Positions 1,129-25,133 are shown, counted from the stretch's first letter. The stretch: DNA of 64,000 bases from Candidatus Melainabacteria bacterium RIFCSPLOWO2_02_FULL_35_15 (GCA_001784585.1 MFRN01000035.1:42925-106924), one strand, 5' to 3'. Made by a program: numbers and translations. The notes: generated by a model not told the origin, from the sequence alone.

Positions 1129-4100
1129 CTAAGGGCAGGGGCTTCCAGTGGGTTTACAAGTATTACTTGCACTGCAGAAGAAACTCCCTGCCGGACAATT
1201 TTGTCCGCCGCCTGAAGAAGGGCATGTAATTTGACATGTGCCATCTGGGCATTTAGTTTGCCCGGCTGGACACGGACAAGCAGCTAGTGTTGTCTGACAT
1301 GAGTTATCGGGACATCTTATCGGAGTAGCTTGTGGGCAAGGGCATGTAATCTGACATGTACCATCTGAGCATTTAGTTTGCCCGGCTGGACACGGACAAG
1401 CAGCCAGTGTTGTCTGACATGAGTTATCGGGACATCTTATCGGAGTAGCTTGTGGGCATGTATCTCCGCCACCGCCACTACTGCTTGTACTAGTGCATGT
1501 AATTTGACATGTGCCATCTGAGCATTTAGTTTGCCCGGCCGGACACGGACAAGCAGCCAGTGTTACCTGACATGAGTTATCAGGACACATGATTGGAGTA
1601 GCTTGTGGGCATGTACCGCCACTGCTTGTACTGGTGCACTCAAGCTGTGTCACTTTGCAGCTTCCATCAGGACATCTTATTGGAGTAGCTTGCGGGCATG
1701 TGCCGCCACTGCTTGTGCTTGCACACTCAAGCTGTGTTACTCTGCAGCTTCCATCAGGACATCTTATTGGAGTAGTTTGTGGACATGTACCGCCACTGCT
1801 TGTACTGGTGCACTCAAGCTGTGTCACTTTGCAGCTTCCATCAGGACATCTTATTGGAGTAGTTTGCGGGCATGTGCCGCCACTGCTTGTGCTTGCACAC
1901 TCAAGCTGTGTTACTCTGCAGCTTCCATCTGGACACTTGATTGGTTTGTCTTGTGGACATGTAGTTGATCCACATTCAGTTTGATTAAATACACACTTGC
2001 CATCAGGACACTTAAATTGTCCTAGTGGACATGCGCCACCACTGCTTGTGCTGGTGCACTCAAGCTGTGTTACTCTGCAGCTTCCATCTGGACACTTGAT
2101 TGGTTTGTCCGGTGGACAAGGACCACCGCCGATGCATTTTTGAGTAACAGGATCAAATTTCTGATCAGGTGGACATTCTCCTTTGCCACATTCTGCCTGA
2201 GAAGGTTTACATAAACCATCCGGACACTTTACAGGTTTATCTGGTGGGCATTGTCCACCGCCAAAGCCACCGCCAAAACATGGTTTACACTCTGGAGGAA
2301 TATCTCCAGTTGATCCGCCGAAACCAGAAGGTTGCGTACCGCCTGGCGTTTGTTCAAGAAGTTTTCTTACATATTGGCTGCATGAGGCAGGGCAATTGTC
2401 CTGGCCGCCTTTTCCTTTTTTACAACCTCCGCCTTCATCTCTGACAAGTCCTTGTCCAAATTTTTCACAAATTGGTAAACAAGCTTCTTGTCCATTTGAA
2501 AGTTTTCCTGGTTCATACTTATCAGGATCAGGGCATGATTTCTTACAACTTTCTACTGCAACATCAGTAGCAACCTTGTCAGAACCAAAATTAGCTGTTA
2601 AATCTTTACAAAGACAACTACGTAAGTCACCTCCAAGTGGAATTGGTCCAGGGCCACCAAATCCTCCCATACCACTACCAAAGCCGCCAAATTGTTGTGC
2701 AGCAAATGTTGTGCTTGTACAGCAACCTTTAGTAACTATGCCAGAACCAAAATCACAAACAGGCCTGCCACTTTTAGCGTCACATGTTTGATGGCACTTA
2801 CATACTTTACAATCCTGAGGAAATCCAAAACCGCCACCAGGGGCACCAGGACCACTGGGACCACCAGGGGTACCAGGACCGCCAGGGCCACCAGCAGTTG
2901 ATCCGCCAAATGTTTGTTCTAAGCCTGTAAATGAAGGTTTTCCAAACTGACTTTCACAATCTTTATGACAACGGGTTAGTACACAGAGTTGTCTGGCTAT
3001 GTCGTTTGGAGTAGTTGGCGCACTTTCACCAGGAGGAAAAAATCCACCCTGTAGTTTAGAAGGAACACAGAATTTTTTACCATTACCTGCATCACCAATA
3101 GCCCAGTCAGGACCAGGGTTTGTCGGGTCAGGAATACATTCAGAAGCTGGTACTCCGTCTTTTGCATCTATTTCAAAGCAGAATAAATCTCTTGGCGGTT
3201 TTTTTACAAAACATTGACCAGGGCCGCCCGGAGTGCTACCTGGTGACGGGCCAGATACTTGTGCTAATCGAGTTATTGGTCCTGGGCCAGCGGGGCCTCC
3301 TTGTGGGCCGCCACAAACACCAAATGGCTGAACACAATTTTTTAGAATGCTTGCAAACTTAGTACATTCTGGCGGAGGACAAACTGGTTTAGGACCTTTA
3401 GCATTTGGCAGTACAAACTTTTCATATACATCACAGGGACTGCCTTTTTCTTCTCCTTTGGTAGCATGCTTACAATAAACTTCTGCTATTTTTTCCAGAG
3501 GCAGTTTCTCAATGAATTCCTTTCCTTCAAAGTTACAAACACTAAAATATGTAGACTTAACATCATTTCCTAGTGCTGCATCAGGTTTATCACAACGATT
3601 TGCAAGCAATTTAACATCCGGACATGCAGCAGAAGGTGTAGGTAAACCACCACTGCTTGAAGTTGATGTGCCACCTGTAATATCATCTAATTTTTGTTTT
3701 ACTGCCTGATCGGCAATTTCGTTAAGTGCTTCTTCATCTCCTTCTGCTGCTGCTTTTAAATAATCGAGCTCTTGAGTCGTCTCTTCTGTTACTTCAATAG
3801 CTTCATTTTCTGAGATTGCTTCATTTGCGTCCGGGTCAGTGCTAAGAGGGACCAGTGCTTCTAGTTCTGCATCTTTATCCTCATCAATGTTTACAGCAAC
3901 AACTCCCGGTTCTGTATCATCTTCGAGTAAAGTATTACTTTCATCTTCAGTTTGTGCTGACAGTTTTCTATTCTTAGTAGTAGTAGTGTTTGAAGGAAGA
4001 TTTTTTGCCCTTACTTCTGTAAAGAATGCACCGTTATTACTTGTGATAACTGACTTATCTGAAATCATATCTCCTTCAAGATCTTCTACTGTTACTACAC

Positions 4101-4647
4101 CTGTTGATTTTGTCTTAGCAGTACCAACAACAAGTGCAGGCGGTTCATATGTAAATGAACTGGTAGTAATATTTATATCTTTTCCATCGGAAATTGTTAG
4201 TTTATATTGATCACCGGGAAGTGAACTGGGTGAAACAGTAATTCCTGACTGGTTAGTAATAGAAAATAAATTTACGACCAGGAACTTACCGGATTTTTTC
4301 TTTAGTTTTCTGTTCTGTACTGTAACTGACTCTGTAGGTACTGTATAAGTTTTTGTGGAGTCTAATGCTGAAGTTAAAGTAACAGTAAGTTTACTTACAC
4401 CAGATTTTCTGACTTTTGCCAACTGATTCGGTGGAAGAGCTACGTTAGCATCATCAGCTGTAGGTATTAAAATACTTCCATATATGGTTTGCTCACCATC
4501 GTTACTAAATACCTGAATGCTAGCTGATGTTTTACCTTTCTTCCCTTTTGCACTTGTTTCATTTGTCGTACAAAATTCAAAAGAAATAAAAGCAAGTGCC
4601 ACAACAAAAAATATCAAAATAAATTTTTTCACAGTTTTTCCTCCCAT
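1129..4647 (-). CDS. Large secreted cysteine-rich tandem-repeat protein (1172 aa). It has a signal peptide, two predicted beta-sandwich N-terminal modules, an acidic linker, a Gly/Pro low-complexity Cys-rich region, and C-terminal 29-aa and 40-aa Cys repeats.
   Basis: ORF track gives 1172 aa. The N-terminus MGGKTVKKFILIFFVVALAFISF is hydrophobic. The C-terminal half contains the unit CPDGSCRVTQLECTSTSSGGTCPQTTPIR repeated about 8 times, then CPCPAGQTKCSDGTCQIT-type units. An upstream RBS GGAGG is present at 4649-4660 (complement). Confidence 0.85.
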   Translation of the reverse strand: MGGKTVKKFILIFFVVALAFISFEFCTTNETSAKGKKGKTSASIQVFSNDGEQTIYGSILIPTADDANVALPPNQLAKVRKSGVSKLTVTLTSALDSTKTYTVPTESVTVQNRKLKKKSGKFLVVNLFSITNQSGITVSPSSLPGDQYKLTISDGKDINITTSSFTYEPPALVVGTAKTKSTGVVTVEDLEGDMISDKSVITSNNGAFFTEVRAKNLPSNTTTTKNRKLSAQTEDESNTLLEDDTEPGVVAVNIDEDKDAELEALVPLSTDPDANEAISENEAIEVTEETTQELDYLKAAAEGDEEALNEIADQAVKQKLDDITGGTSTSSSGGLPTPSAACPDVKLLANRCDKPDAALGNDVKSTYFSVCNFEGKEFIEKLPLEKIAEVYCKHATKGEEKGSPCDVYEKFVLPNAKGPKPVCPPPECTKFASILKNCVQPFGVCGGPQGGPAGPGPITRLAQVSGPSPGSTPGGPGQCFVKKPPRDLFCFEIDAKDGVPASECIPDPTNPGPDWAIGDAGNGKKFCVPSKLQGGFFPPGESAPTTPNDIARQLCVLTRCHKDCESQFGKPSFTGLEQTFGGSTAGGPGGPGTPGGPSGPGAPGGGFGFPQDCKVCKCHQTCDAKSGRPVCDFGSGIVTKGCCTSTTFAAQQFGGFGSGMGGFGGPGPIPLGGDLRSCLCKDLTANFGSDKVATDVAVESCKKSCPDPDKYEPGKLSNGQEACLPICEKFGQGLVRDEGGGCKKGKGGQDNCPASCSQYVRKLLEQTPGGTQPSGFGGSTGDIPPECKPCFGGGFGGGQCPPDKPVKCPDGLCKPSQAECGKGECPPDQKFDPVTQKCIGGGPCPPDKPIKCPDGSCRVTQLECTSTSSGGACPLGQFKCPDGKCVFNQTECGSTTCPQDKPIKCPDGSCRVTQLECASTSSGGTCPQTTPIRCPDGSCKVTQLECTSTSSGGTCPQTTPIRCPDGSCRVTQLECASTSSGGTCPQATPIRCPDGSCKVTQLECTSTSSGGTCPQATPIMCPDNSCQVTLAACPCPAGQTKCSDGTCQITCTSTSSSGGGGDTCPQATPIRCPDNSCQTTLAACPCPAGQTKCSDGTCQITCPCPQATPIRCPDNSCQTTLAACPCPAGQTKCPDGTCQITCPSSGGGQNCPAGSFFCSASNTCKPTGSPCP
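1200..2110. repeat. Coding tandem DNA repeats inside the 1129..4647 gene: about 3 units of 120 bp (roughly 1226-1585) followed by about 6 units of 87 bp (roughly 1594-2110).
   Basis: The 87-bp units alternate between two variants (gtaccgccactgcttgtactggtgcactcaagctgtgtcactttgcag versus gtgccgccactgcttgtgcttgcacactcaagctgtgttactctgcag), giving a 174-bp higher-order repeat. Units differ by only a few substitutions. Confidence 0.85.
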
Positions 4648-4934
4648 AAAGAAAATATCTTTTATAATGCTAACCTCTTAACTGCTAATAAGTGAAATAA
4701 ATGTCACACAAGATACATACTATATAACGCGACATAAATGCTAACGCATATTATGTCGCTATTTTATGGCGGATCTTCATTGGCGTTCGGGTTGTCGAAG
4801 GACAACCCTCACTTGTAACATTACTTAGGTCGCTGCGTATATATAAAGATTTTCATTATGAGGGATACAGATAATTACTAAAAAGTATTAATTTTTTTGT
4901 CAATTTTAGAAATAAAAGGAACAAAAGCTTACGC

Positions 4935-10252: not shown

Positions 10253-11533
10253 TTGCCAATAAAAAATAATATGCCAGAAGGAATAAGTCCATTAAGTGGA
10301 AGAGTCGAAGCAAGATTTGACAGAGTTTTAGAAAACAGAGCAAGAGACATAAGTTCTGGACGTAGATTTACACCCCTTGGAGGAAATTATTATCAGACAT
10401 ATGAATATGATCCGGATGTTAATGGACAATATTTAAGAAGAGAAAATGGACCGTATATTTACAACACAGGTACAGGTAGAGGAAATAGATATATTCCCGG
10501 ACATGACATAAATTCTGACGGTACATTTACAAGAACATATTTATTACCCAGATCGCAGGCACCTGCTATCTCATACTTAAGCAGGCAGGATGCAATCAGG
10601 CATTTAAGTTTGCTTGAAAATCCAGATGGTACTTTTCGCAGACATGGATTTGTAGGAACTTATACAACAAGAAATGACGGAACAGTTTTCTATGGAGGTG
10701 GTTACCATCCAAATAATGGCAGACGGGTAGATCTTCCTCCACAAACTTATATTAATGGCAGATGGTATGAAGGTGATATAAGACCAGGTTCTATTCCGCA
10801 GCCTGGAGTTGGAGAAGTACAACCACGACCTGGAGCCGGAGGAGTACAACCGCAGCCTGGAGTCGGCGGAGTACAGCCACGACCTGGAGCCGGAGGAGTA
10901 CAACCGCAGCCTGGAGTTGGAAGAATACAACCGCAGCTGCCAAGAATAGAAGTACCACCAATAACAGCAGGTACAAACGGAAGGATAGCTTTACCTCCTG
11001 GAGTACGACTAACAAGAATAACAGCACCTGGAGCAACAGCATGGACAGAACCAGGTTCATATGAATATCAAGGTGGATTTAAAATGAATAAAAATGGCAG
11101 CTATACATTTGCTCCTGGAGCAGATCCATATCGGGCAAGCGGAACATATACATTGAGAACAAATGATGGAAGAGAGTTTCAATTACAGGTAAACTCACCA
11201 CCGCCAATTTCACAACCGCTACCGGTGGCTTCACCATCACGGTTTGACATTCATCAGGATCTTCGTGCATATCTGAGAGCTCTTGCAGGGGATTTTGGAG
11301 AAGAGCAGGGAGAAATAGAATTTATTCTTTCACAACTGGAGCAGGCAGCTACTCCGGGAGATAATGATCTTACAGAATTAATTCGTAGAAGAGATCCTTC
11401 ATTAAGTCAGGTAGTTTTGAATTTAGAACAGCTTGCAGGAATTCATACCAGACGCGGAGAAGCAGATCTGGCAGATCGAGCTAAGCAGCTTGCACAGTTG
11501 ATCCGGCCTTATGTACCAATACTGCCAGCATGA
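10253..11533 (+). CDS. Hypothetical protein with Gly/Pro-rich 26-aa tandem repeats (GVQPQPGVGGVQPRPGAG) and a GC-richer Ala/Leu/Arg-rich C-terminal region
   Basis: ORF of 426 aa with a 78-bp DNA repeat at about 10801-10940. No signal peptide. No recognisable catalytic motif. Confidence 0.55.
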   Translation: MPIKNNMPEGISPLSGRVEARFDRVLENRARDISSGRRFTPLGGNYYQTYEYDPDVNGQYLRRENGPYIYNTGTGRGNRYIPGHDINSDGTFTRTYLLPRSQAPAISYLSRQDAIRHLSLLENPDGTFRRHGFVGTYTTRNDGTVFYGGGYHPNNGRRVDLPPQTYINGRWYEGDIRPGSIPQPGVGEVQPRPGAGGVQPQPGVGGVQPRPGAGGVQPQPGVGRIQPQLPRIEVPPITAGTNGRIALPPGVRLTRITAPGATAWTEPGSYEYQGGFKMNKNGSYTFAPGADPYRASGTYTLRTNDGREFQLQVNSPPPISQPLPVASPSRFDIHQDLRAYLRALAGDFGEEQGEIEFILSQLEQAATPGDNDLTELIRRRDPSLSQVVLNLEQLAGIHTRRGEADLADRAKQLAQLIRPYVPILPA

Positions 11534-17169: not shown

Positions 17170-17302
17170 AAAACATCCTCCTTAAAACAAACGTTATATA
17201 TCATATCAAACCTATATGGGTTTTCTATGTTTCCCTTCTTAACCAGTTAACAATATAATATAGGGTACAATGTAGTTAGCTGTAGTTAATCGTAGTAAAA
17301 TC

Positions 17303-17719
17303 ATGGCAAAATCAAATCCAATAAATATCAGATTAGAATTACCGGTCCTGAATGAAATAAAAAATCTGGCCAAAGCTCTGCACCTTCCTTTGAGTATGGT
17401 GCTTAATAGGCTTATTGCTGAAGCTCTTAGAATGTTTCAGTGCCCGGGTATTATTTTTACAAATAGTCCTTCCGGCAGAAGGAGAGCTACAGTAGCTGGT
17501 TCCGGGCTTGACGTATGGGAAATGATAAGTATTTGTAAAAGTTATAACAAAAATTATAAGAAAGTTCTTAAAGATTATCCTTTAACTGAAATACAATTAA
17601 ATGCAGCTTTGAATTATTATGAGCATTATAAAAATGAGATTGATCAGGAAGTAAAACAAAATGATGAAGCTGAAGAGTTTGCAAGTTCAAGTAAATTAGT
17701 TACTAAGTTCAGTATTTAA
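17303..17719 (+). CDS. DUF433-family protein (putative antitoxin) with an N-terminal RHH-like segment
   Basis: 138 aa. PGIIFTNSPSGRRRATVAGSGLDVWEMI...YPLTEIQLNAALNYY matches the DUF433 consensus. Confidence 0.6.
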   Translation: MAKSNPINIRLELPVLNEIKNLAKALHLPLSMVLNRLIAEALRMFQCPGIIFTNSPSGRRRATVAGSGLDVWEMISICKSYNKNYKKVLKDYPLTEIQLNAALNYYEHYKNEIDQEVKQNDEAEEFASSSKLVTKFSI

Positions 17720-17721
17720 TC

Positions 17722-18075
17722 ATGAAGCTCTACCTTGACGAAAACATTTCACCACTTGTTGCTAAAAAACTTAGAGAAAAAGGATTTGATGTAATATCAG
17801 TGCACGAAAACAATACCCGGTCAAAAAGTGATATTGAACAGTTTGAACTTGCCATAAGAGAAAAAAGGGCCATAGTTACATATGATGTTATAGATTTTAC
17901 AGACTTAGCAAAAGGATATATTGCAAAGGTAAAACCGCATTCCGGGATAATTTTAGTAAGTAATAAAACCATTCCGCAGGGAAATTCGAAAAAACTTGCC
18001 GTTTCACTGGAAAAATTATTACACCATAAAGAAAAAGATTTTTTAGAGAACAGAATTGTGTATTTAACAAAATAA
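17722..18075 (+). CDS. DUF5615-family protein (Mut7-C/PIN-like putative toxin) paired with DUF433
   Basis: 117 aa. The N-terminus MKLYLDENISPLVAKKLREKGFDVISV matches DUF5615. The gene starts 3 bp after the DUF433 stop. Confidence 0.6.
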   Translation: MKLYLDENISPLVAKKLREKGFDVISVHENNTRSKSDIEQFELAIREKRAIVTYDVIDFTDLAKGYIAKVKPHSGIILVSNKTIPQGNSKKLAVSLEKLLHHKEKDFLENRIVYLTK

Positions 18076-19356
18076 GGTGTTGTCAAGCAGCCACTTCCAG
18101 AGAGGAATAAAACTGATTTTTGTCTTTTTTACTGTAACTTTTTTTTCGGTATCCCAGGTAATAATAGAAAGGTTTTTGCAATTAAGTTCTTCGCTGGCTT
18201 CTAAGAGAGAATTAATTTCTCTTTTTTCAGTATAAGGATCTTTAACATCATATGAAACCTGAATTAACTCTTTGATTTTTATACCTTTTTTCAACACAAA
18301 ATCAACTTCTTTTTGGTTTCTTGTTTTGTAATAAAAGAGATTCATATTAAGTTTACAACCTCTGTTTAAAAGTTCTATGAAGATTAGATTTTCAATAAGC
18401 TTGCCATAATTTTTAGAAGACTGAAATGCCTTTGCTTCAATAAAACCATTGTCAATCAGATAAATTTTCTTTGAGGCATTTATCTGTTCTTTTACTTTGT
18501 TTGAATATCTGTTCAGAGTAAAAGAAATATATGCTTCGCTTAAATATGATAGATAATTTTGAGCAGTATGTGTACTGTTAAAACCAAGAATATTTTTCAG
18601 CTTTGTATAACTTAACTCCTGACAAAAGTTTGATGCAGTATAGACGGACAGATCATACATTTTTTGTGTAAATCTTACATTGTATCTTTTAACTATATCT
18701 TTCAATAAAATAGCTTCATATAAAGTGTTTAAATATTGTTTTGGTTCAAAGTTTTTCAGAGTAACTTCAGGAAATCCTCCATGCAGGTTGTATTCACTTA
18801 AATAATTTAATATTTCACCTTTAATTTCAGGCAAATTAAATTCCTTTTTTGCAACAGAAACCTTTTTTGCAGTTAAAAATTCTCTAAAGCTGAATGGAAA
18901 TATTTCAACTGAAATATATCTTCCGGTTAATGATGTAGATAATTCTTTACTTAGCAGCTTTGCATTTGATCCGGTAAGAACGAGATTATAGCCCCTTCTC
19001 TGCAGCTTGTTTACAAACAGCTCCCAGTTTTTCAGGTTCTGGATTTCATCAAAAAAAATATATTTAGTCTTTCCATAAACTTCAACAAGACTTTTAATAA
19101 TTTCATCTGTATCAGTTACATCTAAAAGTTTTTCATCGTCAAAATTCAAATATGCAAAATTTGCATCTTCAAGTAAAAGAAAAGAGAAAACGGATTTCCC
19201 TGCTCTTCTTGGTCCTGTAATAACTTTAATCAAATCTGAAGAAAGATTTTTTTTAAACCCGGTGATTTTTTCCCGTTTTATAAAATCCTTTAAGAGTGTT
19301 TGTTCTTTTTCTTTTTTTTGTTGAAGTATGATTTCTTGTAGCATAGTATACTGCAC
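18064..19356 (-). CDS. AAA+ superfamily ATPase with C-terminal DUF4143 (COG1373-like)
   Basis: 430 aa. Walker A ITGPRRAGKS and Walker B IFFDEIQ are present. The domain organisation is typical of the ATPase/DUF4143 family. Confidence 0.7.
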   Translation of the reverse strand: MQYTMLQEIILQQKKEKEQTLLKDFIKREKITGFKKNLSSDLIKVITGPRRAGKSVFSFLLLEDANFAYLNFDDEKLLDVTDTDEIIKSLVEVYGKTKYIFFDEIQNLKNWELFVNKLQRRGYNLVLTGSNAKLLSKELSTSLTGRYISVEIFPFSFREFLTAKKVSVAKKEFNLPEIKGEILNYLSEYNLHGGFPEVTLKNFEPKQYLNTLYEAILLKDIVKRYNVRFTQKMYDLSVYTASNFCQELSYTKLKNILGFNSTHTAQNYLSYLSEAYISFTLNRYSNKVKEQINASKKIYLIDNGFIEAKAFQSSKNYGKLIENLIFIELLNRGCKLNMNLFYYKTRNQKEVDFVLKKGIKIKELIQVSYDVKDPYTEKREINSLLEASEELNCKNLSIITWDTEKKVTVKKTKISFIPLWKWLLDNTLFC

Positions 19357-19539
19357 AAAAATTGCCTTTTTTGTGCAGTATGATTAATTTAATGTATAAA
19401 AAGGAATAAGTCAAGCCAGGCTGGCTAAATTGTATAGTATAGTACTTTTACGAGTTGTTTAGGATGAATTTATGGGTCAGAATCCTCCACTACATCAAAA
19501 GGTTTAGATATACAGGGTTATCCCTGATTATATCATCAC

Positions 19540-19572
19540 TCAAAACAAAAACCCCTCTTTTTAGGAGGGGCT
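19540..19572 (-). terminator. Rho-independent terminator of the 19604..20179 gene
   Basis: On the minus strand the hairpin CCCCTC(C)-loop-GGAGGGG is followed by TTTTTGTTTTG. Confidence 0.6.
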
Positions 19573-19603
19573 TTTGCAAGGAGGAGGATGAGGAGTTTAT
19601 GTT

Positions 19604-20179
19604 TTAAACATTAACTCTCACGCCGTCAAGGAACCTGTGAAACTTATTTAGAAGTTCCAGAATCACTTCTTTATGACCATGAGTGCTGACTTCGCCATCC
19701 GGGTGTAGCCAGACAAGACCTTCTTTTATCTCATTATTTTCTGGAATCCATGCCTGAAAAATAATTCCGCCAATTTGTTTTTGATCTATGGAGTAAATAG
19801 ATCCTTCTTTCCCCATAACAGTGCTTATCCTGTTACCGTTTGGTCTTAGTTCTACAAAATGTTTTAAGTAACCTTCCTGATTATAAAAATAAATTATTTC
19901 TGTCTTGTCTTCCCTTACTTCGTGGCTTGATGGTAAACCGGTACTATCCTTTGAAATATGATAAAGTTTTGTACCGTTTGCTCTTTCTTCAATTGCTAAA
20001 CTCCTGCCTTCTTCATCTTTTGTAAAAACAATCTTTGTTCCCTCAGCAGTAGTCTTTATCTCGATTTTATTACCTTCCGGATCGCTTATATAAACTGACT
20101 CGCCGCTAAGATGCCTTAACTGAACCAATGCCGGCACTATTTCTGTTAATTCATTGGTATTTTTGCTTAATTCTATCAT
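19604..20179 (-). CDS. Hypothetical protein
   Basis: 191-aa ORF with its own terminator. No recognisable motif. Confidence 0.5.
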   Translation of the reverse strand: MIELSKNTNELTEIVPALVQLRHLSGESVYISDPEGNKIEIKTTAEGTKIVFTKDEEGRSLAIEERANGTKLYHISKDSTGLPSSHEVREDKTEIIYFYNQEGYLKHFVELRPNGNRISTVMGKEGSIYSIDQKQIGGIIFQAWIPENNEIKEGLVWLHPDGEVSTHGHKEVILELLNKFHRFLDGVRVNV

Positions 20180-20286
20180 TTATTTTTCCCCGTTTCTTCC
20201 TTCACTAAATATAAAGATCAAGTCAGGGTAATTTTGATAGTAAATAAAGCTAAGTTTTTTAAATAATACTTTTAACCAGTTCTTAA

Positions 20287-20317
20287 TGTTGCCAACATTA
20301 AAAAAAATTTATCTTTC
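20287..20317. repeat. 31-bp direct repeat, copy 1, flanking ORF6N cassette 1
   Basis: tgttgccaacattaaaaaaaatttatctttc is identical to 20926-20956. It contains the palindrome AATGTTG-c-CAACATT. Confidence 0.85.
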
Positions 20318-20324
20318 GATCAAT

Positions 20325-20831
20325 TTAAAAACCAATTCTTTTTCTTGATTTTACTTCAGGTTCTGTCAAACGTTTTATTGCCTCAAATACTATTTGAAAT
20401 TGGTTATCGTATTTTTTCTCTATCTCTTCAATCTTTTTTCTTAGGTCTTTATTACTTTCAATCATTTCCCGAAGCTTTGTGAAGGTTCTCATTATCTGAA
20501 TATTTACATTAATAGCCATTTCGCTGTTTAAAACAGTTGAGAGCATAGCAACACCCTGCTCGGTGAAAGCATATGGTAATGAAGTGGAATGTTTTAGTCT
20601 CTTGAACCGATCACAATTTGTGATCAGTTCATCCCTTTCATGTATAGTAAGCTGAAACATGAAATCTTCAGGGAAACGCTTAATATTTCTTTTAACTGAT
20701 TGATTTAAAGTTCTGGTTTCAACTTCATATAGGTTTGCCAGATCTACATCGATCATGACTTTTTTACCTCGTATTAAGAGAATCCTTTTTTCAATTTTTT
20801 CAACTGGTATTAAAGTTGTATTCATATTCAA
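20325..20831 (-). CDS. ORF6N-domain protein (phage/mobile-element-associated DNA-binding family)
   Basis: 168 aa. The VMIDVDLANLYEVETRTLNQSVKRNIKRFPEDFMFQLT and YAFTEQGVAMLS motifs are present. It is paralogous to 62474..63010. Confidence 0.7.
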   Translation of the reverse strand: MNMNTTLIPVEKIEKRILLIRGKKVMIDVDLANLYEVETRTLNQSVKRNIKRFPEDFMFQLTIHERDELITNCDRFKRLKHSTSLPYAFTEQGVAMLSTVLNSEMAINVNIQIMRTFTKLREMIESNKDLRKKIEEIEKKYDNQFQIVFEAIKRLTEPEVKSRKRIGF

Positions 20832-20908
20832 TTACTGATGCCTCTCTAGAGATAGCCACAATTTGTAACCAGTCCATTTTAGTCATAGTTAGATATTTAT
20901 GCAACTTT

Positions 20909-20923
20909 GTAACCCACGGTTAC
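20909..20923. promoter_or_regulatory. Palindromic putative operator GTAACC-CAC-GGTTAC upstream of the ORF6N gene. Imperfect copies lie at 20960-20974 and 20990-21004, and a half-site at 20865-20870.
   Basis: Perfect inverted hexamers GTAACC/GGTTAC separated by 3 nt. The same motif occurs upstream of the second ORF6N paralog at 63030-63044. Confidence 0.5.
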
Positions 20924-20925
20924 AT

Positions 20926-20956
20926 TGTTGCCAACATTAAAAAAAATTTATCTTTC
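20926..20956. repeat. 31-bp direct repeat, copy 2, flanking ORF6N cassette 1
   Basis: Identical to 20287-20317. Confidence 0.85.
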
Positions 20957-21085
20957 AATGTAACCTGCGGTATCAAAAGTATAACGAATGTAACTCTGGG
21001 TATCATATTACGAATTGCGAAAAGATCAAACATTCAGTAAATTATTTATTCACTTACGAGACAGTCCCCTGAAAGAAAAACCAAA

Positions 21086-22732
21086 ATGCAAAGCAATCTC
21101 ATTCGACTCGCAATACTCCTTGCCATGATACTTACAGTCACGACTCCTGTTGACTGTCATTCCAAAGATATATGGCGGTTTCTGTATCAGCCTCGTCAGC
21201 GGGTTGTAAAAACAATTGGCATATATAAAGATCAGATTTTCACTGGTACAGGAAATGGAGTTTTAGTCAGTAATGATAAAGGAAAAACATGGAATGATTT
21301 TGGTACAAATCAACTTTTAAAAGACAGCAGCGGTCTTTCATCTGTAAACTGGATTTATATTGACGGAGAAAATAAAAAGATTTATATTACTACAAATTTC
21401 GGTGCTTACTATTCTGATATAGCTAAGCCGGACTGGCACAGGTTCTTTGAAAATGTAAAAACTGAATCAAATGAAGTCAATTCTTTAACCGTAGATAAAA
21501 ATGAGGTCTACCTGAGTACTAATGACGGCTTTTGGATTTGTAACTTAAACCTTGGGAGCTGTGAAAGATTAAATCAGGGATTGGATCCCGATAATATTTC
21601 AGGAAACTTTCAGATTCTTTACGCATTAAAAATTAGTAATGAGTTGTATTTGGCAGCTTCAAACGGAATTTATAAACTTGATCACAGTAGAGCATCCTGG
21701 CACAATCTTTCGGAAGGAATCTACAGACTCCCTGACGGGAAAATAAATGCCAGGCATTTGCTTCTAAATAAAGGAAATATTTGGGCTGCATGCGGAACAG
21801 GTATTTATAAAAGTACAGATGGCGGGGAATTATGGAAAAATGTATCAGACGGAATCGGAAAAAATTCCGAAGGGTTTCAGGGAGCATTTTATCTTTTTCA
21901 ATCCGGAGATACTTTGTATTCTGCAACTGAAAATGGAATCTATTTTTATAGTGCAGAAAATGATTCATGGAATAATTTAACTTCTGGTATTAGAACGAAA
22001 GAAAATTCAAAAAATGTTTACTGGTTAGCACAGGTTGATAGTGATTTATATGCTGCTACTGATGAAGGCTTATTTGTTTTACAGGAACCAAAACAAGAAG
22101 AGCAAAATAGTAAATTAATCCTGAAAGGAAAAGTAGAAACTGATTTTGCAAACCTGGGAGAGCTGGAACCTGGTGTTATTGAAGTGCAAAAACAAGCATT
22201 AAAGTTTGCATCGTTACCTACAAATAATGATTATAAAAGATACAGACTGCAGGCAAGATTAAGAAATATTGTTCCAAGGCTTGGTGTAGATTTAAATACC
22301 ACAGGGACAAGTACAAATTATTATCAGATTGATAAAGGAATTTCAGCCAAGTCCTCGCTTAGTAATGATTTTAATGCAGATAAAACAAACAGATACCAGT
22401 ATGACGGAAGGGCATTTAAGCAGCTTTCAGTCCTGTGGAATACCAATCAGCTTTTTTATGATGATGAAATTAAAGATATATTGAGTCAGGCCAGATTAAC
22501 AGCAAATCTAAAAGAAAATCTTTTAGATGATGTAACCAGAATTTATTTTCAAAGAAGAAGACTGCAGCTGGAAAATTTAGTTTCTCCACCGAAAGATCAG
22601 ATAAGCAAGCTGTCTGCAGATCTTCAAATAGCTGAATTTACCGGTCAGCTTGACTCCAGGACAGGCGGCTGGTTTACAAAAGAAACTGAAAGAAGGAAAA
22701 GGCTGCAGGTAAATAATGCAAAATCACAATAA
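21086..22732 (+). CDS. Secreted beta-propeller protein with BNR/Asp-box-like repeats and a C-terminal coiled region
   Basis: 548 aa with a signal peptide MQSNLIRLAILLAMILTVTTPV. It carries repeated S/T-x-D-x-G-x-T/S-W motifs (SNDKGKTWND, STDGGELWKN, AENDSWNN, DHSRASWHN). Confidence 0.65.
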   Translation: MQSNLIRLAILLAMILTVTTPVDCHSKDIWRFLYQPRQRVVKTIGIYKDQIFTGTGNGVLVSNDKGKTWNDFGTNQLLKDSSGLSSVNWIYIDGENKKIYITTNFGAYYSDIAKPDWHRFFENVKTESNEVNSLTVDKNEVYLSTNDGFWICNLNLGSCERLNQGLDPDNISGNFQILYALKISNELYLAASNGIYKLDHSRASWHNLSEGIYRLPDGKINARHLLLNKGNIWAACGTGIYKSTDGGELWKNVSDGIGKNSEGFQGAFYLFQSGDTLYSATENGIYFYSAENDSWNNLTSGIRTKENSKNVYWLAQVDSDLYAATDEGLFVLQEPKQEEQNSKLILKGKVETDFANLGELEPGVIEVQKQALKFASLPTNNDYKRYRLQARLRNIVPRLGVDLNTTGTSTNYYQIDKGISAKSSLSNDFNADKTNRYQYDGRAFKQLSVLWNTNQLFYDDEIKDILSQARLTANLKENLLDDVTRIYFQRRRLQLENLVSPPKDQISKLSADLQIAEFTGQLDSRTGGWFTKETERRKRLQVNNAKSQ

Positions 22733-25133
22733 AATTATTTTTGTATTCCTTCTTTTGGTAGTAAGTTTTTTATTTTTGAAGGCACTGGCTTTTGTTATTC
22801 CCGATTTTGAAATTATTGGTAAAGATCCTGAAATTACAGAGATAGAAACAAATTTTCTGATCCCCGGGCAGAAGGTGAAAATTTACGGTAAAAACTTTTT
22901 TGAGACACCAAGATCTGCAAATAAAATCTGGATTAACAGTTATCCGGTCAGAGTTTTAAAAAGCGAAAAGAATTTTTTAGAAGTAATTGTTCCTAAGATT
23001 CCTCTCGGTAAGGGGAGGATAAGATTATATACAAATTATTTAGGATATAAAAGTAAAGAAACGTTTTACCCAAACGATAAAAGTAAATTAATAACAGTTA
23101 CATTTAATGGACCGGTACTTCAAAATACAGATACTGTTTCTGTAATCCCGGGCAGACGATTACTGATTTACGGAAAGTTTAATAAGAATAATCTGCTGTT
23201 TTGTAAAATTAATAATTATGAAATAAAATCAAAACCAGTCTCAGATGAAATTGTTGAGCTGTATCTGCCGGATTTATTACCACCGGGTCCATTTAGAATA
23301 AATTCTTTTTACAGGAAATATATTAAAGGCAGGGAATATATTGACTCTGCCCCTGGTAATAATTTGATTTTATTTAATGCGGAGAATGGCTTGCCGAACC
23401 GGATAAAAATAGTCTTACCGGAAAATAAACTTGATTCTGCCAATAAAGAATATCCTTACAGAGTTGAGTTAAGCTTTAGTAACTTTTTACAAACAGTCGA
23501 TATTACAAATTTTTCTAAGGTTGAATTAGCTTCCGGAGATGCATTTGATCTTGATACAGGAAAAAATATCCTGAGGCTTAAAAATACCGGATATGCTAAG
23601 TTAAAAGCTTCTTTTATATGGGTACCGGAAAATCTGCTCTTTAGTGATGAGATTACCGTTGTCTCTGAACTTCCCGGAAAACCTGATTTTGCAGAAGTTA
23701 TAATAAATGAGATTTTCCCGTTTCCCTCAGGTATTATTCCTGCTACTGATGCCAATATGAACGGTTTTGCAAGATCTGATGAAGATGAGTTTATTGAACT
23801 TAAAAATATTGCAAAGGAAAGATTCAATATTTCAGGATGTAGATTATTTACCGGAGAAAATAAAACAGCCTGTTATGAATTTTCTGAAAATACGGTTATT
23901 GAACCAGATAAATATTTGGTTGTTTTCGGAGAGCAGGCAAAGAATAAAAACCTGAATTTGATCAATACAGGAACTACTGTCGAATTTGTATGTGATGAGA
24001 TGACAATTGATTATACAGGCTACTCTCCGGGTAAAAGCGGTGATCCTTCCTGGCAAAGAAAAAGTGACTTAAGTGGTTTTGAAAAACATCCTGTTAGTTT
24101 GTTTTCTCCCGGAGGTCCACCGGCAAATTTAAATCAAAACACAACAGTACAAAATACTCCTGCACCTGCACCAGTCTTAATTACTGATTCAGTCAGTGAA
24201 TCTGTTCCGTTAACACTAAGAGAAATTTCAGTGTTACCTGTTGAATTGTTGTTTCAGGATCAAACTCCACAGCAGCTTTATGTAACCGGTGTGTATACAA
24301 ATGGAGAAAATAAAGAAATTACAAGTGAATCTGTTTACAAAATAACAGGTGGAGACAATGTAATTAAAGTTAATTCAGGCGGTCTTGTCTCCCCGTTTTC
24401 AAATGGTAGCGCCACAATAGAGATTGCATATCAGGATAAAACCATTGAAGTAATAGCAAATGTAAATCTTCTCAGCAAAGTTCAGCCTAAACAGCTGGTT
24501 ATAAATGAAGTGCTTGCAGCACCTACAGTTGATGTAAATAAGGATGGTATTTTTAAAAGCGATCAGGATGAATTTATTGAAGTGGTTAATATTTCCGGCG
24601 CAGCGTCAGATATAAGCGGATTACTTATTTCAGACAATACAAAGATTAGGCATACTGTACCTCCTGGTACTATTCTCCAAAACCTTGAATCTGTTGTAAT
24701 TTTTGGCGGAGGAAGTACAAATACTTTTTCTGATGTGCTTAAATCCCAGACTGCAAATACCGGAAGCCTGGGTTTAAACAATAGCGGAGCTGAGCAGGTT
24801 ACAGTTTCTACCAGTGACAATAAAATTATTGATCAGGTTTTATTTGATAACAATAATCTTCAGGGGGTTTCGCTAAATAGAACCGGTGATTTAAGTTTTA
24901 ATTTACTTAATCCACACGATAAGTTTTTAAAAGCTGTTGGCAAATATTCCCCGGGAATGAGAATTGACGGAACTTCTTTTACCTTATCTCCACAAGAAGG
25001 AGCAGATCTTTTAAAAGGTTCTTCATCTTCATCAAGCAGCTCATCATCGGGCAGTAGTTCTTCCAGCAGCAGTTCTTCCAGCAGCAGTTCTTCTGGTTCT
25101 GCTACATCATCTTCTTCCAGCAGCGGATTTTAA
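22716..25133 (+). CDS. Secreted/membrane-anchored protein with two lamin-tail domains (LTD), a Big_2-like Ig domain and a C-terminal poly-serine tail
   Basis: 805 aa with an N-terminal hydrophobic segment. LTD signatures IINEIFPFPSG...DEDEFIELKNI...ISGCRL and VINEVLAAPTVDVNKDG...DQDEFIEVVNISG...ISGLLISDN are present. The C-terminal ~50 residues are almost entirely Ser. It overlaps the upstream gene by 17 bp. Confidence 0.65.
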   Translation: MQNHNKIIFVFLLLVVSFLFLKALAFVIPDFEIIGKDPEITEIETNFLIPGQKVKIYGKNFFETPRSANKIWINSYPVRVLKSEKNFLEVIVPKIPLGKGRIRLYTNYLGYKSKETFYPNDKSKLITVTFNGPVLQNTDTVSVIPGRRLLIYGKFNKNNLLFCKINNYEIKSKPVSDEIVELYLPDLLPPGPFRINSFYRKYIKGREYIDSAPGNNLILFNAENGLPNRIKIVLPENKLDSANKEYPYRVELSFSNFLQTVDITNFSKVELASGDAFDLDTGKNILRLKNTGYAKLKASFIWVPENLLFSDEITVVSELPGKPDFAEVIINEIFPFPSGIIPATDANMNGFARSDEDEFIELKNIAKERFNISGCRLFTGENKTACYEFSENTVIEPDKYLVVFGEQAKNKNLNLINTGTTVEFVCDEMTIDYTGYSPGKSGDPSWQRKSDLSGFEKHPVSLFSPGGPPANLNQNTTVQNTPAPAPVLITDSVSESVPLTLREISVLPVELLFQDQTPQQLYVTGVYTNGENKEITSESVYKITGGDNVIKVNSGGLVSPFSNGSATIEIAYQDKTIEVIANVNLLSKVQPKQLVINEVLAAPTVDVNKDGIFKSDQDEFIEVVNISGAASDISGLLISDNTKIRHTVPPGTILQNLESVVIFGGGSTNTFSDVLKSQTANTGSLGLNNSGAEQVTVSTSDNKIIDQVLFDNNNLQGVSLNRTGDLSFNLLNPHDKFLKAVGKYSPGMRIDGTSFTLSPQEGADLLKGSSSSSSSSSSGSSSSSSSSSSSSSSGSATSSSSSSGF

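Follow-up and report, generated by a model that had tools for sequence, protein, structure and literature searches.

Integrase-less genomic islets include the cis-mobilizable (CIME-type) elements and the cargo-only remnants of tRNA-targeting islands such as tycheposons. Integron cassettes are usually promoterless, and their gene is followed at its 3' end by attC, an imperfectly palindromic recombination site of about 57-141 bp; phage morons usually have a terminator of their own and no target duplication. Target duplications made by DDE transposons are typically 2-14 bp long, casposons duplicate about 14-15 bp, CRISPR spacer integration duplicates a repeat of about 30 bp, and long interspersed nuclear element (LINE) retrotransposition produces duplications of variable length. 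The overlap regions of recombinases usually measure 6-8 bp, and dif sites, as in pdif/IMEX modules, are 28 bp long with an 11-6-11 arrangement of XerC arm, 6-bp centre and XerD arm. Here we describe an ORF6N-domain gene, related to the candidate defence family PDC-S05, which lies between two copies of a 31-bp direct repeat in a stretch of 64,000 nucleotides (the window, from here on) of Candidatus Melainabacteria bacterium RIFCSPLOWO2_02_FULL_35_15 (GCA_001784585.1 MFRN01000035.1:42925-106924), and we compare this locus with the systems mentioned above.

The two copies of the repeat, TGTTGCCAACATTAAAAAAAATTTATCTTTC, are exact and are located at 20,287-20,317 (stop side of the gene) and 20,926-20,956 (promoter side). 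They are the only ones in the window, where no third copy appears even when up to three mismatches are allowed; if one mismatch is tolerated, the direct repeat grows to 34 nt. Between them lies a cassette of 608 bp (20,318-20,925, minus strand) that consists of a terminal palindrome, a leader of 100 nt, the ORF6N gene and 7 nt past its stop codon, and that is absent from the orthologous spacers of relatives. Our reading, to which we assign a probability of about 0.75, is that this cassette was acquired horizontally and inserted between two genes of housekeeping type, one for a propeller-like protein and the other for a protein of 191 amino acids (aa), duplicating 31 bp of host target, and that the same process, acting in trans, would account for a second cassette in the window and for ORF6N insertions in other phyla. 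The layout of repeat, ORF6N and repeat recurs in 10 contigs from independent groundwater assemblies and samples, which rules out an assembly artefact. Seven of these 10 population contigs carry one single-nucleotide polymorphism in the stop-side copy, so that in most strains the repeat is 30/31. The core of the 31-mer, AAANTTTTTTTAATGTTGGCAACA, was also scanned in collections of metagenome and genome contigs without this organism, with 0 matches, a result that is uninformative on dispersal.

The preliminary description of this locus had reported the perfect repeat at these two positions, had held it unlikely to arise by chance, and had interpreted it as the trace of a small integrase-less insertion, for which empty sites carrying one copy of the 31-mer should be looked for. 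All of this is supported by the analysis. No match comparable to the 31-mer pair was obtained in 100 dinucleotide-preserving shuffles. The 191-aa downstream neighbour is a Melainabacteria-specific protein with 79 homologues, and its orthologues at 72-83% identity are encoded at related loci (L093-L095, L096-L098 and L099) in which the propeller-like gene, a spacer of 236-311 bp, the 191-aa gene and PFK follow one another, with both flanking genes shared and ORF6N absent. When one 31-mer and the 608 bp are subtracted from the spacer of the window, 267 bp remain, which align colinearly with the L093-L099 spacers. The host flank to the right of the stop-side copy, TTAAGAACTGG on the gene strand, where host sequence continues toward the 191-aa gene, is colinear with the empty sites L093, L096 and L099, and the outer flank of the promoter-side copy, GATACCGCAGGTTACATT on the gene strand, is likewise colinear with empty sites. 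L099 holds a single homologous 31-mer, GAAAGATAAAAAAAATTTAATGTTGGTAAGG (23/31 identical), bordered on one side by GATACC..GTTACATT, like the flank of the promoter-side copy, and on the other by TTAAGAA.GGTTAA, like that of the stop-side copy. Since this empty site has one homologous copy with both flanks matching, the 31-mer is taken to be a duplicated host target.

The edges of the cassette can be placed to within a nucleotide by comparison with ORF6N relatives of 75-81% amino-acid identity, which occupy unrelated genomic contexts: L102 and L265 lie upstream of a DNA-ligase region (ligA), L267 is found elsewhere, L100 adjoins a HEPN/NTase pair and L101 a dethiobiotin-synthase-like gene. DNA homology of the window cassette with L102, L265 and L267 starts exactly at TGTAACCGTGGGTTACA, which is conserved at 17/17 positions in all four and lies 1 nt away from the promoter-side repeat. 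This is the palindrome P1 (TGTAACC-N3-GGTTACA, 20,908-20,924), which thus forms the 5' edge of the cassette. At the other end, homology stops with TAAAT(T)GATC, within 1 nt of the stop-side repeat. Outside these limits no significant similarity remains, the comparison of the flanks upstream of P1 between cassettes giving p 0.17-0.8. Because the cassettes of L102/L265 and L267 have identical ends and unrelated flanks, the 31-mer does not seem to be borne by the element; no att core shared by the cassettes was found, the flanks of these loci being unrelated to the 31-mer. For the same reason, sequence comparison favours a true target-site duplication over an att-like segment of identity.

The insert consists of a single gene, and no recombinase or integrase domain, as expected of a site-specific integrative element, was found among the genes called within ±10 kb. 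In neither cassette of the window do terminal inverted repeats pair the two ends. Given that the cassette holds no recombinase and no inverted terminal repeats, the insertion would have been carried out in trans. At the 3' end of the cassette, where the stop codon is followed by just 7 nt before the host repeat, there is neither an attC-like structure nor a palindrome. A promoter and terminator scan, whose matches are no more numerous than in shuffled sequence, detected no terminator after ORF6N, and an Rfam search of 19,000-22,000 returned only a sub-threshold IS009 match (18 bits versus a threshold of 117 bits). The cassette is co-oriented with the downstream 191-aa gene, and this orientation, together with the lack of a terminator, suggests that the latter can still be transcribed by read-through.

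A second ORF6N cassette surfaced when the window was searched for P1 and for a palindrome located inside the ORF6N gene (described below). It comprises 611 bp (62,461-63,071, minus strand) at a distance of 42 kb from the first, with the coding sequence at 62,474-62,995 (Pfam ORF6N, E 3.6e-34), P1 at 63,029-63,045 and the intragenic palindrome at 62,775-62,801. It is flanked by a 23-bp repeat, unrelated to the 31-mer, whose copies at 62,438-62,460 (stop side) and 63,072-63,094 (promoter side) match exactly, with 0 such matches expected by chance. The promoter-side copy contains the last codons of an expressed DUF4127 gene (..PWQRAFEVE-INY*). The stop-side copy reads ..WQRAFEVE-IRVV* (frame ..WQRAFEVEIRVV*). 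Its stop overlaps the stop codon of a convergent gap-like gene, and this copy therefore probably represents the original 3' end, which the insertion displaced from the DUF4127 gene. The C-termini of DUF4127 homologues (..EVEIDINVL, ..EVEVKLN, ..EIELEVI) are ambiguous as to which of the 23-bp copies is ancestral. Among the fetched loci, relatives of the second cassette reach an amino-acid identity of at most 68%, and its ends were therefore not refined.

The ORF6N family is spread over many phyla at 50-83% identity and has 184 matches in viral contigs. A total of 240 ORF6N loci were gathered from GTDB genomes, IMG/VR and metagenomes, and 200 unique ones were used in a survey in which the 400 nt upstream of each gene were locally aligned to the 400 nt downstream, counting scores of at least 40. 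Such scores were reached in direct orientation by 24 of the 200 loci (12%), compared with 3 of 533 displaced control windows (0.6%), and in inverted orientation by a single locus of the 200. The flanking repeats are local host sequence of 14-150 bp, and the stop-side one often begins 0-11 nt past the ORF6N stop codon. In L032 (3,676-4,651), the 5' part of a ComF-like gene is repeated over about 117-130 bp and the ORF6N stop codon lies inside the host repeat; in L068 (3,825-4,633), ORF6N sits between hsdM and hsdS, with the end of hsdM and the start of hsdS repeated (94 bp); in L022 (3,868-4,677), it follows a split CarB gene whose end is repeated (130 bp). ORF6N follows tRNA-Leu in L014 (3,806-4,713) and tRNA-Lys in L227 (654-1,712), and in both cases the 3' part of the tRNA is repeated. 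The host-derived repeats of these five loci measure 40-130 bp, and those of L213 and L215 are gene ends with terminators. The two copies in L022 differ mainly at third codon positions (19 of 24 differences), which suggests that they evolved as coding sequence in different genomes. No end motif conserved across the family was found, P1 being limited to one subfamily, and this makes a dedicated transposase less likely.

In some genomes, two or three diverged ORF6N genes stand in tandem, as observed in L048 (1,053-2,672), L018 (3,882-5,104), L059 (3,583-5,450) and L021. The array in L048 holds three ORF6N genes with spacers of just 12 nt, and in L018 and L059 the upstream leaders are nearly identical, while the genes are strongly diverged.

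Compared with the described systems, the unit shares with CIME- and tycheposon-type islets a small recombinase-less cargo between direct target repeats, and some ORF6N loci use tRNA 3' ends (L014, L227). However, the ORF6N repeat is host spacer that differs from one related cassette to the next, and the unit extends from promoter to stop, with no remnant genes and no cognate integrase seen. Like an integron cassette, it is a one-gene unit of about 0.6 kb with no recombinase inside, forming tight arrays in some genomes (L048), but it has a conserved 100-nt leader with operator-like sites and no attC, intI and attI are absent nearby, and the flanking repeat is a 31-bp target instead of a GTTRRRY core. 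Insertion sequences, transposons and miniature inverted-repeat transposable elements are set apart by the lack of terminal inverted repeats and of an enzyme fold in the ORF6N unit, as well as by its duplications of 31 and 23 bp (14-150 bp in the family). Duplications of tens of base pairs (23-31 bp here, 14-150 bp in the family) recall Cas1-family integrases and LINEs, but their length is not fixed and ORF6N has no associated Cas1 or reverse transcriptase; moreover, the unit includes upstream regulatory DNA and thus is not an mRNA copy of the LINE type. Phage morons resemble it in being self-contained transcription units placed between host genes in the same orientation, and ORF6N is common in viral contigs, but the cassette lacks a terminator and has a long duplication. 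It differs from Xer-dependent modules in that the palindrome of the repeat has a 1-nt centre (5-1-5, or 9-1-9 with the flank) and is absent from the L099 empty site.

This last palindrome had been given in the preliminary description as a 7-1-7 structure that might serve a recombinase. Only a 5-1-5 palindrome (TGTTGcCAACA) exists within the repeat proper; a longer one of 9-1-9 (TTAATGTTGcCAACATTAA) occurs at the left copy only, by borrowing host flank, and is not kept in L099. Being partly flank and not conserved at the empty site, it offers no evidence for a recombinase site. The same description had listed the ORF6N gene, its upstream region and several GTAACC-N3-GGTTAC palindromes between the repeats; gene and leader are indeed there, but P1 is the only such palindrome inside, the two others belonging to the host. 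In its extended form, GCAACAATGTAACC-GTG-GGTTACAAAGTTGC, P1 runs 5 nt into the repeat, and these shared nucleotides, GCAAC, are a possible junction microhomology. The 17-mer of P1 has 8 matches in viral contigs, and 0 of them adjoin an ORF6N gene. The two host P1-like sites, TGTAACCTGCGGTATCA (20,959-20,975) and TGTAACTCTGGGTATCA (20,989-21,005), are conserved in relatives without ORF6N. Immediately beside the insertion point, the host spacer at 20,959-21,020 presents two sites of the TGTAACC-N3-GGTATCA type and a GCAATTCGTAA motif, likewise conserved in those relatives, that resemble the palindromes of the cassette; these could reflect a target preference, or else a host promoter under ORF6N-type control. 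Global homology between host spacer and cassette leader is not significant (p 0.25).

Inside the gene there is a near-perfect palindrome, TGAACCGATCACAA-T-TTGTGATCAGTTCA (20,603-20,631), which encodes the peptide ELITNCDRF, and an operator-like site in the leader, GGTTACAAATTGTGGCT (20,854-20,870, minus strand), is identical to it at 18/21 positions. For 176 of 225 unique ORF6N genes (78%; loci L013-L263), the best 12+12 intragenic palindrome reaches a score of 11-12 of 12, which only 6 of the 225 (2.7%) attain after synonymous-codon shuffling. The palindrome, of about 25 bp and with the consensus GGTCRCAAWTTGYGACC, is located at approximately residue 70 in 97% of the genes, and its arms covary while the encoded peptide changes (LRSQFVTS, VVANCDHL, LITNCDRF, LRFHFGTS). 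About 35 of 212 ORF6N genes also have a perfect palindrome of the same type upstream, at a distance of 19-211 nt that is mostly close to 39 nt. In the simplest reading, the intragenic and upstream palindromes are paired putative binding sites through which a dimeric ORF6N protein would regulate its own gene. A role as an mRNA hairpin was considered and dropped, because the types of arm mismatch on the sense strand (34 G.T, 62 A.C and 91 others) give no support for G.T wobble pairing.

The ORF6N gene itself (20,325-20,825, minus strand) encodes 166 aa from its ATG, with an alternative TTG start at 20,831. The protein matches the full Pfam domain PF10543 (E 6e-32, positions 2-86 of 86) and the PADLOC PDC-S05 profile PDLC04856 (E 2e-62, positions 1-173 of 177). 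An identical protein is deposited in NCBI under Candidatus Melainabacteria bacterium RIFCSPLOWO2_02_FULL_35_15; exact look-up returned no record for the 168-aa protein starting at TTG, nor for P0002, a relative that is 96% identical. The AlphaFold2 (AF2) model of the window protein is that of a DNA binder, with a winged-helix domain and C-terminal helices, and no nuclease or recombinase fold was seen in it. When the family profile was searched against the sequences of PDB chains, no match fell below E 0.15, and Foldseek against PDB gave nothing below E 0.7. The protein probably binds the palindromes of the cassette and regulates its own expression. Its closest relatives, P0002-P0008 (80-96% identical), continue for about 20 aa more at the C-terminus (YVADEEIKNLKNFKGI.FYD), an extension that the window protein lacks, and the end of the window gene resembles the 166-aa forms P0015 and P0023, so that this gene may be recombinant or shortened.

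By its profile match, the protein is a candidate member of the single-gene phage-defence family PDC-S05 (ORF6N/RhuM-like), which it resembles over the full length, and its neighbours are typical defence-island genes. It has been reported that one PDC-S05 representative lowers the plating of phages T7 and T5 about 1000-fold and shields Escherichia coli from T7, T5 and T4 (preprint 10.1101/2024.09.26.614923). The tested representative is described as a RhuM-domain protein, and its defence function may not carry over to the protein of the window. Studies of PDC-S05 treat the gene as a defence candidate only, and our literature search on mobility, target duplications, defined cassette ends or palindromes of ORF6N found nothing beyond domain listings.

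Regarding the mechanism, we prefer, tentatively and at somewhat less than even odds, an illegitimate, microhomology-assisted insertion in trans. It is favoured because there is no enzyme, there are no inverted ends and no shared end motif, the flanks are unrelated, and the duplications vary in length (23 and 31 bp in the window, 14-150 bp in the family). Replication might switch template into donor DNA and back, re-entering 31 nt behind the exit point, or a widely staggered break might be filled in; both routes would yield target duplications of variable length, and one process appears to lie behind the second cassette (42 kb away, with its 23-bp duplication) and the ORF6N insertions in many other phyla. 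A different origin, which we judge rather unlikely, is an integrase-less circle mobilised in trans, with the 31-mer as an att-like segment and a tyrosine integrase, a Xer-type recombinase or RecA (Campbell-type) leaving one copy on each side; the circular junction would then read ..TAAATTGATC + 31-mer + ATGTAACC... Repeats of 14-150 bp that derive from the 3' parts of tRNAs (L014, L227) or from gene ends, some of them synonymously diverged (L022), do resemble the attL/attR of islands that carry an integrase, repeated circle integration in shared segments would fit the tandem arrays with identical leaders and diverged genes (L018, L059), and the P1-like palindromes beside the target are also in its favour. 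However, no integrase lies within ±10 kb, the repeats of the two window cassettes are unrelated, and the 31-mer is not element-borne, to judge from the L102/L265 and L267 cassettes with their identical ends and unrelated flanks. Furthermore, the palindrome of the 31-mer has a spacer of 1 nt and is not conserved in L099, and identity at 31/31 positions, in an AT-rich spacer that evolves fast, would need a conspecific donor. Considerably less probable still would be that the cassette is an autonomous or semi-autonomous mobile gene whose ORF6N protein, acting on its own palindromes, directs insertion near similar sites and thereby causes long, variable duplications. The strong enrichment of flanking repeats at ORF6N genes, two independent events within one 64-kb window, the sharp 5' end at P1 in four cassettes, the host P1-like sites adjoining the insertion, the intragenic palindrome (78% of 225 genes versus 2.7% after synonymous shuffling) and the very wide distribution over phyla at 50-83% identity would agree with it, but the structure model shows a winged helix and further helices without a nuclease or recombinase fold, P1 is confined to one subfamily with no family-wide end motif, 88% of the loci have no repeat, and the 3' ends vary and sometimes truncate the gene (L032, and the window gene, which lacks the tail of about 20 aa of P0002-P0008). 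That there was no insertion, and that the 31-mer is a locally duplicated promoter or operator module or a dispersed intergenic repeat flanking the gene by coincidence, is very improbable: the 31-mer is AT-rich and has a TTGGCA motif, in promoter-like territory, but the empty sites with one homologous copy and no ORF6N largely refute this idea, only two copies exist in 64 kb with up to three mismatches, the promoter scan is no richer than shuffled sequence, and the edges of the repeat lie where homology to foreign cassettes stops.

Several points weigh against acquisition by illegitimate insertion as proposed here. The empty sites belong to other species (the 191-aa protein is 72-83% identical) and not to the same population, and the insertion step is inferred, since within the same species neither a donor molecule nor a circular junction nor a polymorphic empty allele was seen. 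The host P1-like sites beside the insertion point hint at a site preference that would be unexpected under random illegitimate insertion. In some members of the family, the repeats have diverged mostly at synonymous positions (L022) or are tRNA 3' ends, as is classic for att sites of the integrase type or for lateral transfer at a later time, and not for a simple duplication in situ. Since repeat enrichment was measured against displaced windows and not against other small accessory genes, it may not be specific to ORF6N. Finally, a template switch that re-enters behind its exit point is not known as an established route of gene acquisition in bacteria. A broader and doubtful possibility is that ORF6N (PDC-S05-type) genes constitute an unrecognised class of minimal mobile cassettes, made of a single DNA-binding gene with its own palindromes, which insert co-oriented into spacers and gene ends in many phyla and leave long, variable duplications, either directed by ORF6N or by exploiting the palindromes (for example, through stalled replication and template switches). 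As part of this idea, the palindrome inside the ORF6N coding sequence may be kept at the cost of amino-acid changes.

In the neighbourhood of the first cassette, the interval of about 2.3 kb between the terminator of the 191-aa gene and PFK (17,170-19,603) encodes an AAA_14/DUF4143 ATPase, which PADLOC assigns to PDC-S01, and a DUF5615/PIN-like toxin together with its partner of 138 aa; in relatives, the spacer at this place measures only 258-391 bp. No direct repeat was found around this PDC-S01 and toxin-antitoxin insertion, so that the region is a variable islet of small size, built up by two or more separate acquisitions. On the other side, a gene at 22,716-25,133 encodes a protein of 805 aa with two lamin-tail (LTD) domains and a long poly-serine tract at its end; it follows the propeller-like gene (548 aa) in an apparent operon that is kept in relatives. 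A repeat scan of the whole window also revealed Pro/Gly-rich coding-like units repeated in tandem, with lengths of 87-120 bp and 27 bp, at 1,218-2,127 and 10,796-10,957, and a diverged duplication (216-898 and 3,971-4,653) with a spacing of 3,755 bp and about 87% identity.

We regard the event as a genuine case of integrase-less islet acquisition with a very long target duplication and ends defined to the base pair; it recurs throughout a very large family that has a conserved palindrome inside its genes. It bears on the open question of how single-gene defence systems move and enter islands without a recombinase of their own, a question that becomes testable with an occupied and empty pair whose boundaries are known to the base pair, a second event in the same 64 kb and the figure of 12% for the family. 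The long and variable target duplications fit neither the usual rules of transposons nor those of integrons, and the intragenic palindrome provides a concrete cis-element for tests of binding, regulation or recombination. If general, this process would allow small genes to enter operons and the ends of genes while leaving them intact, since the duplication rebuilds the interrupted gene end.

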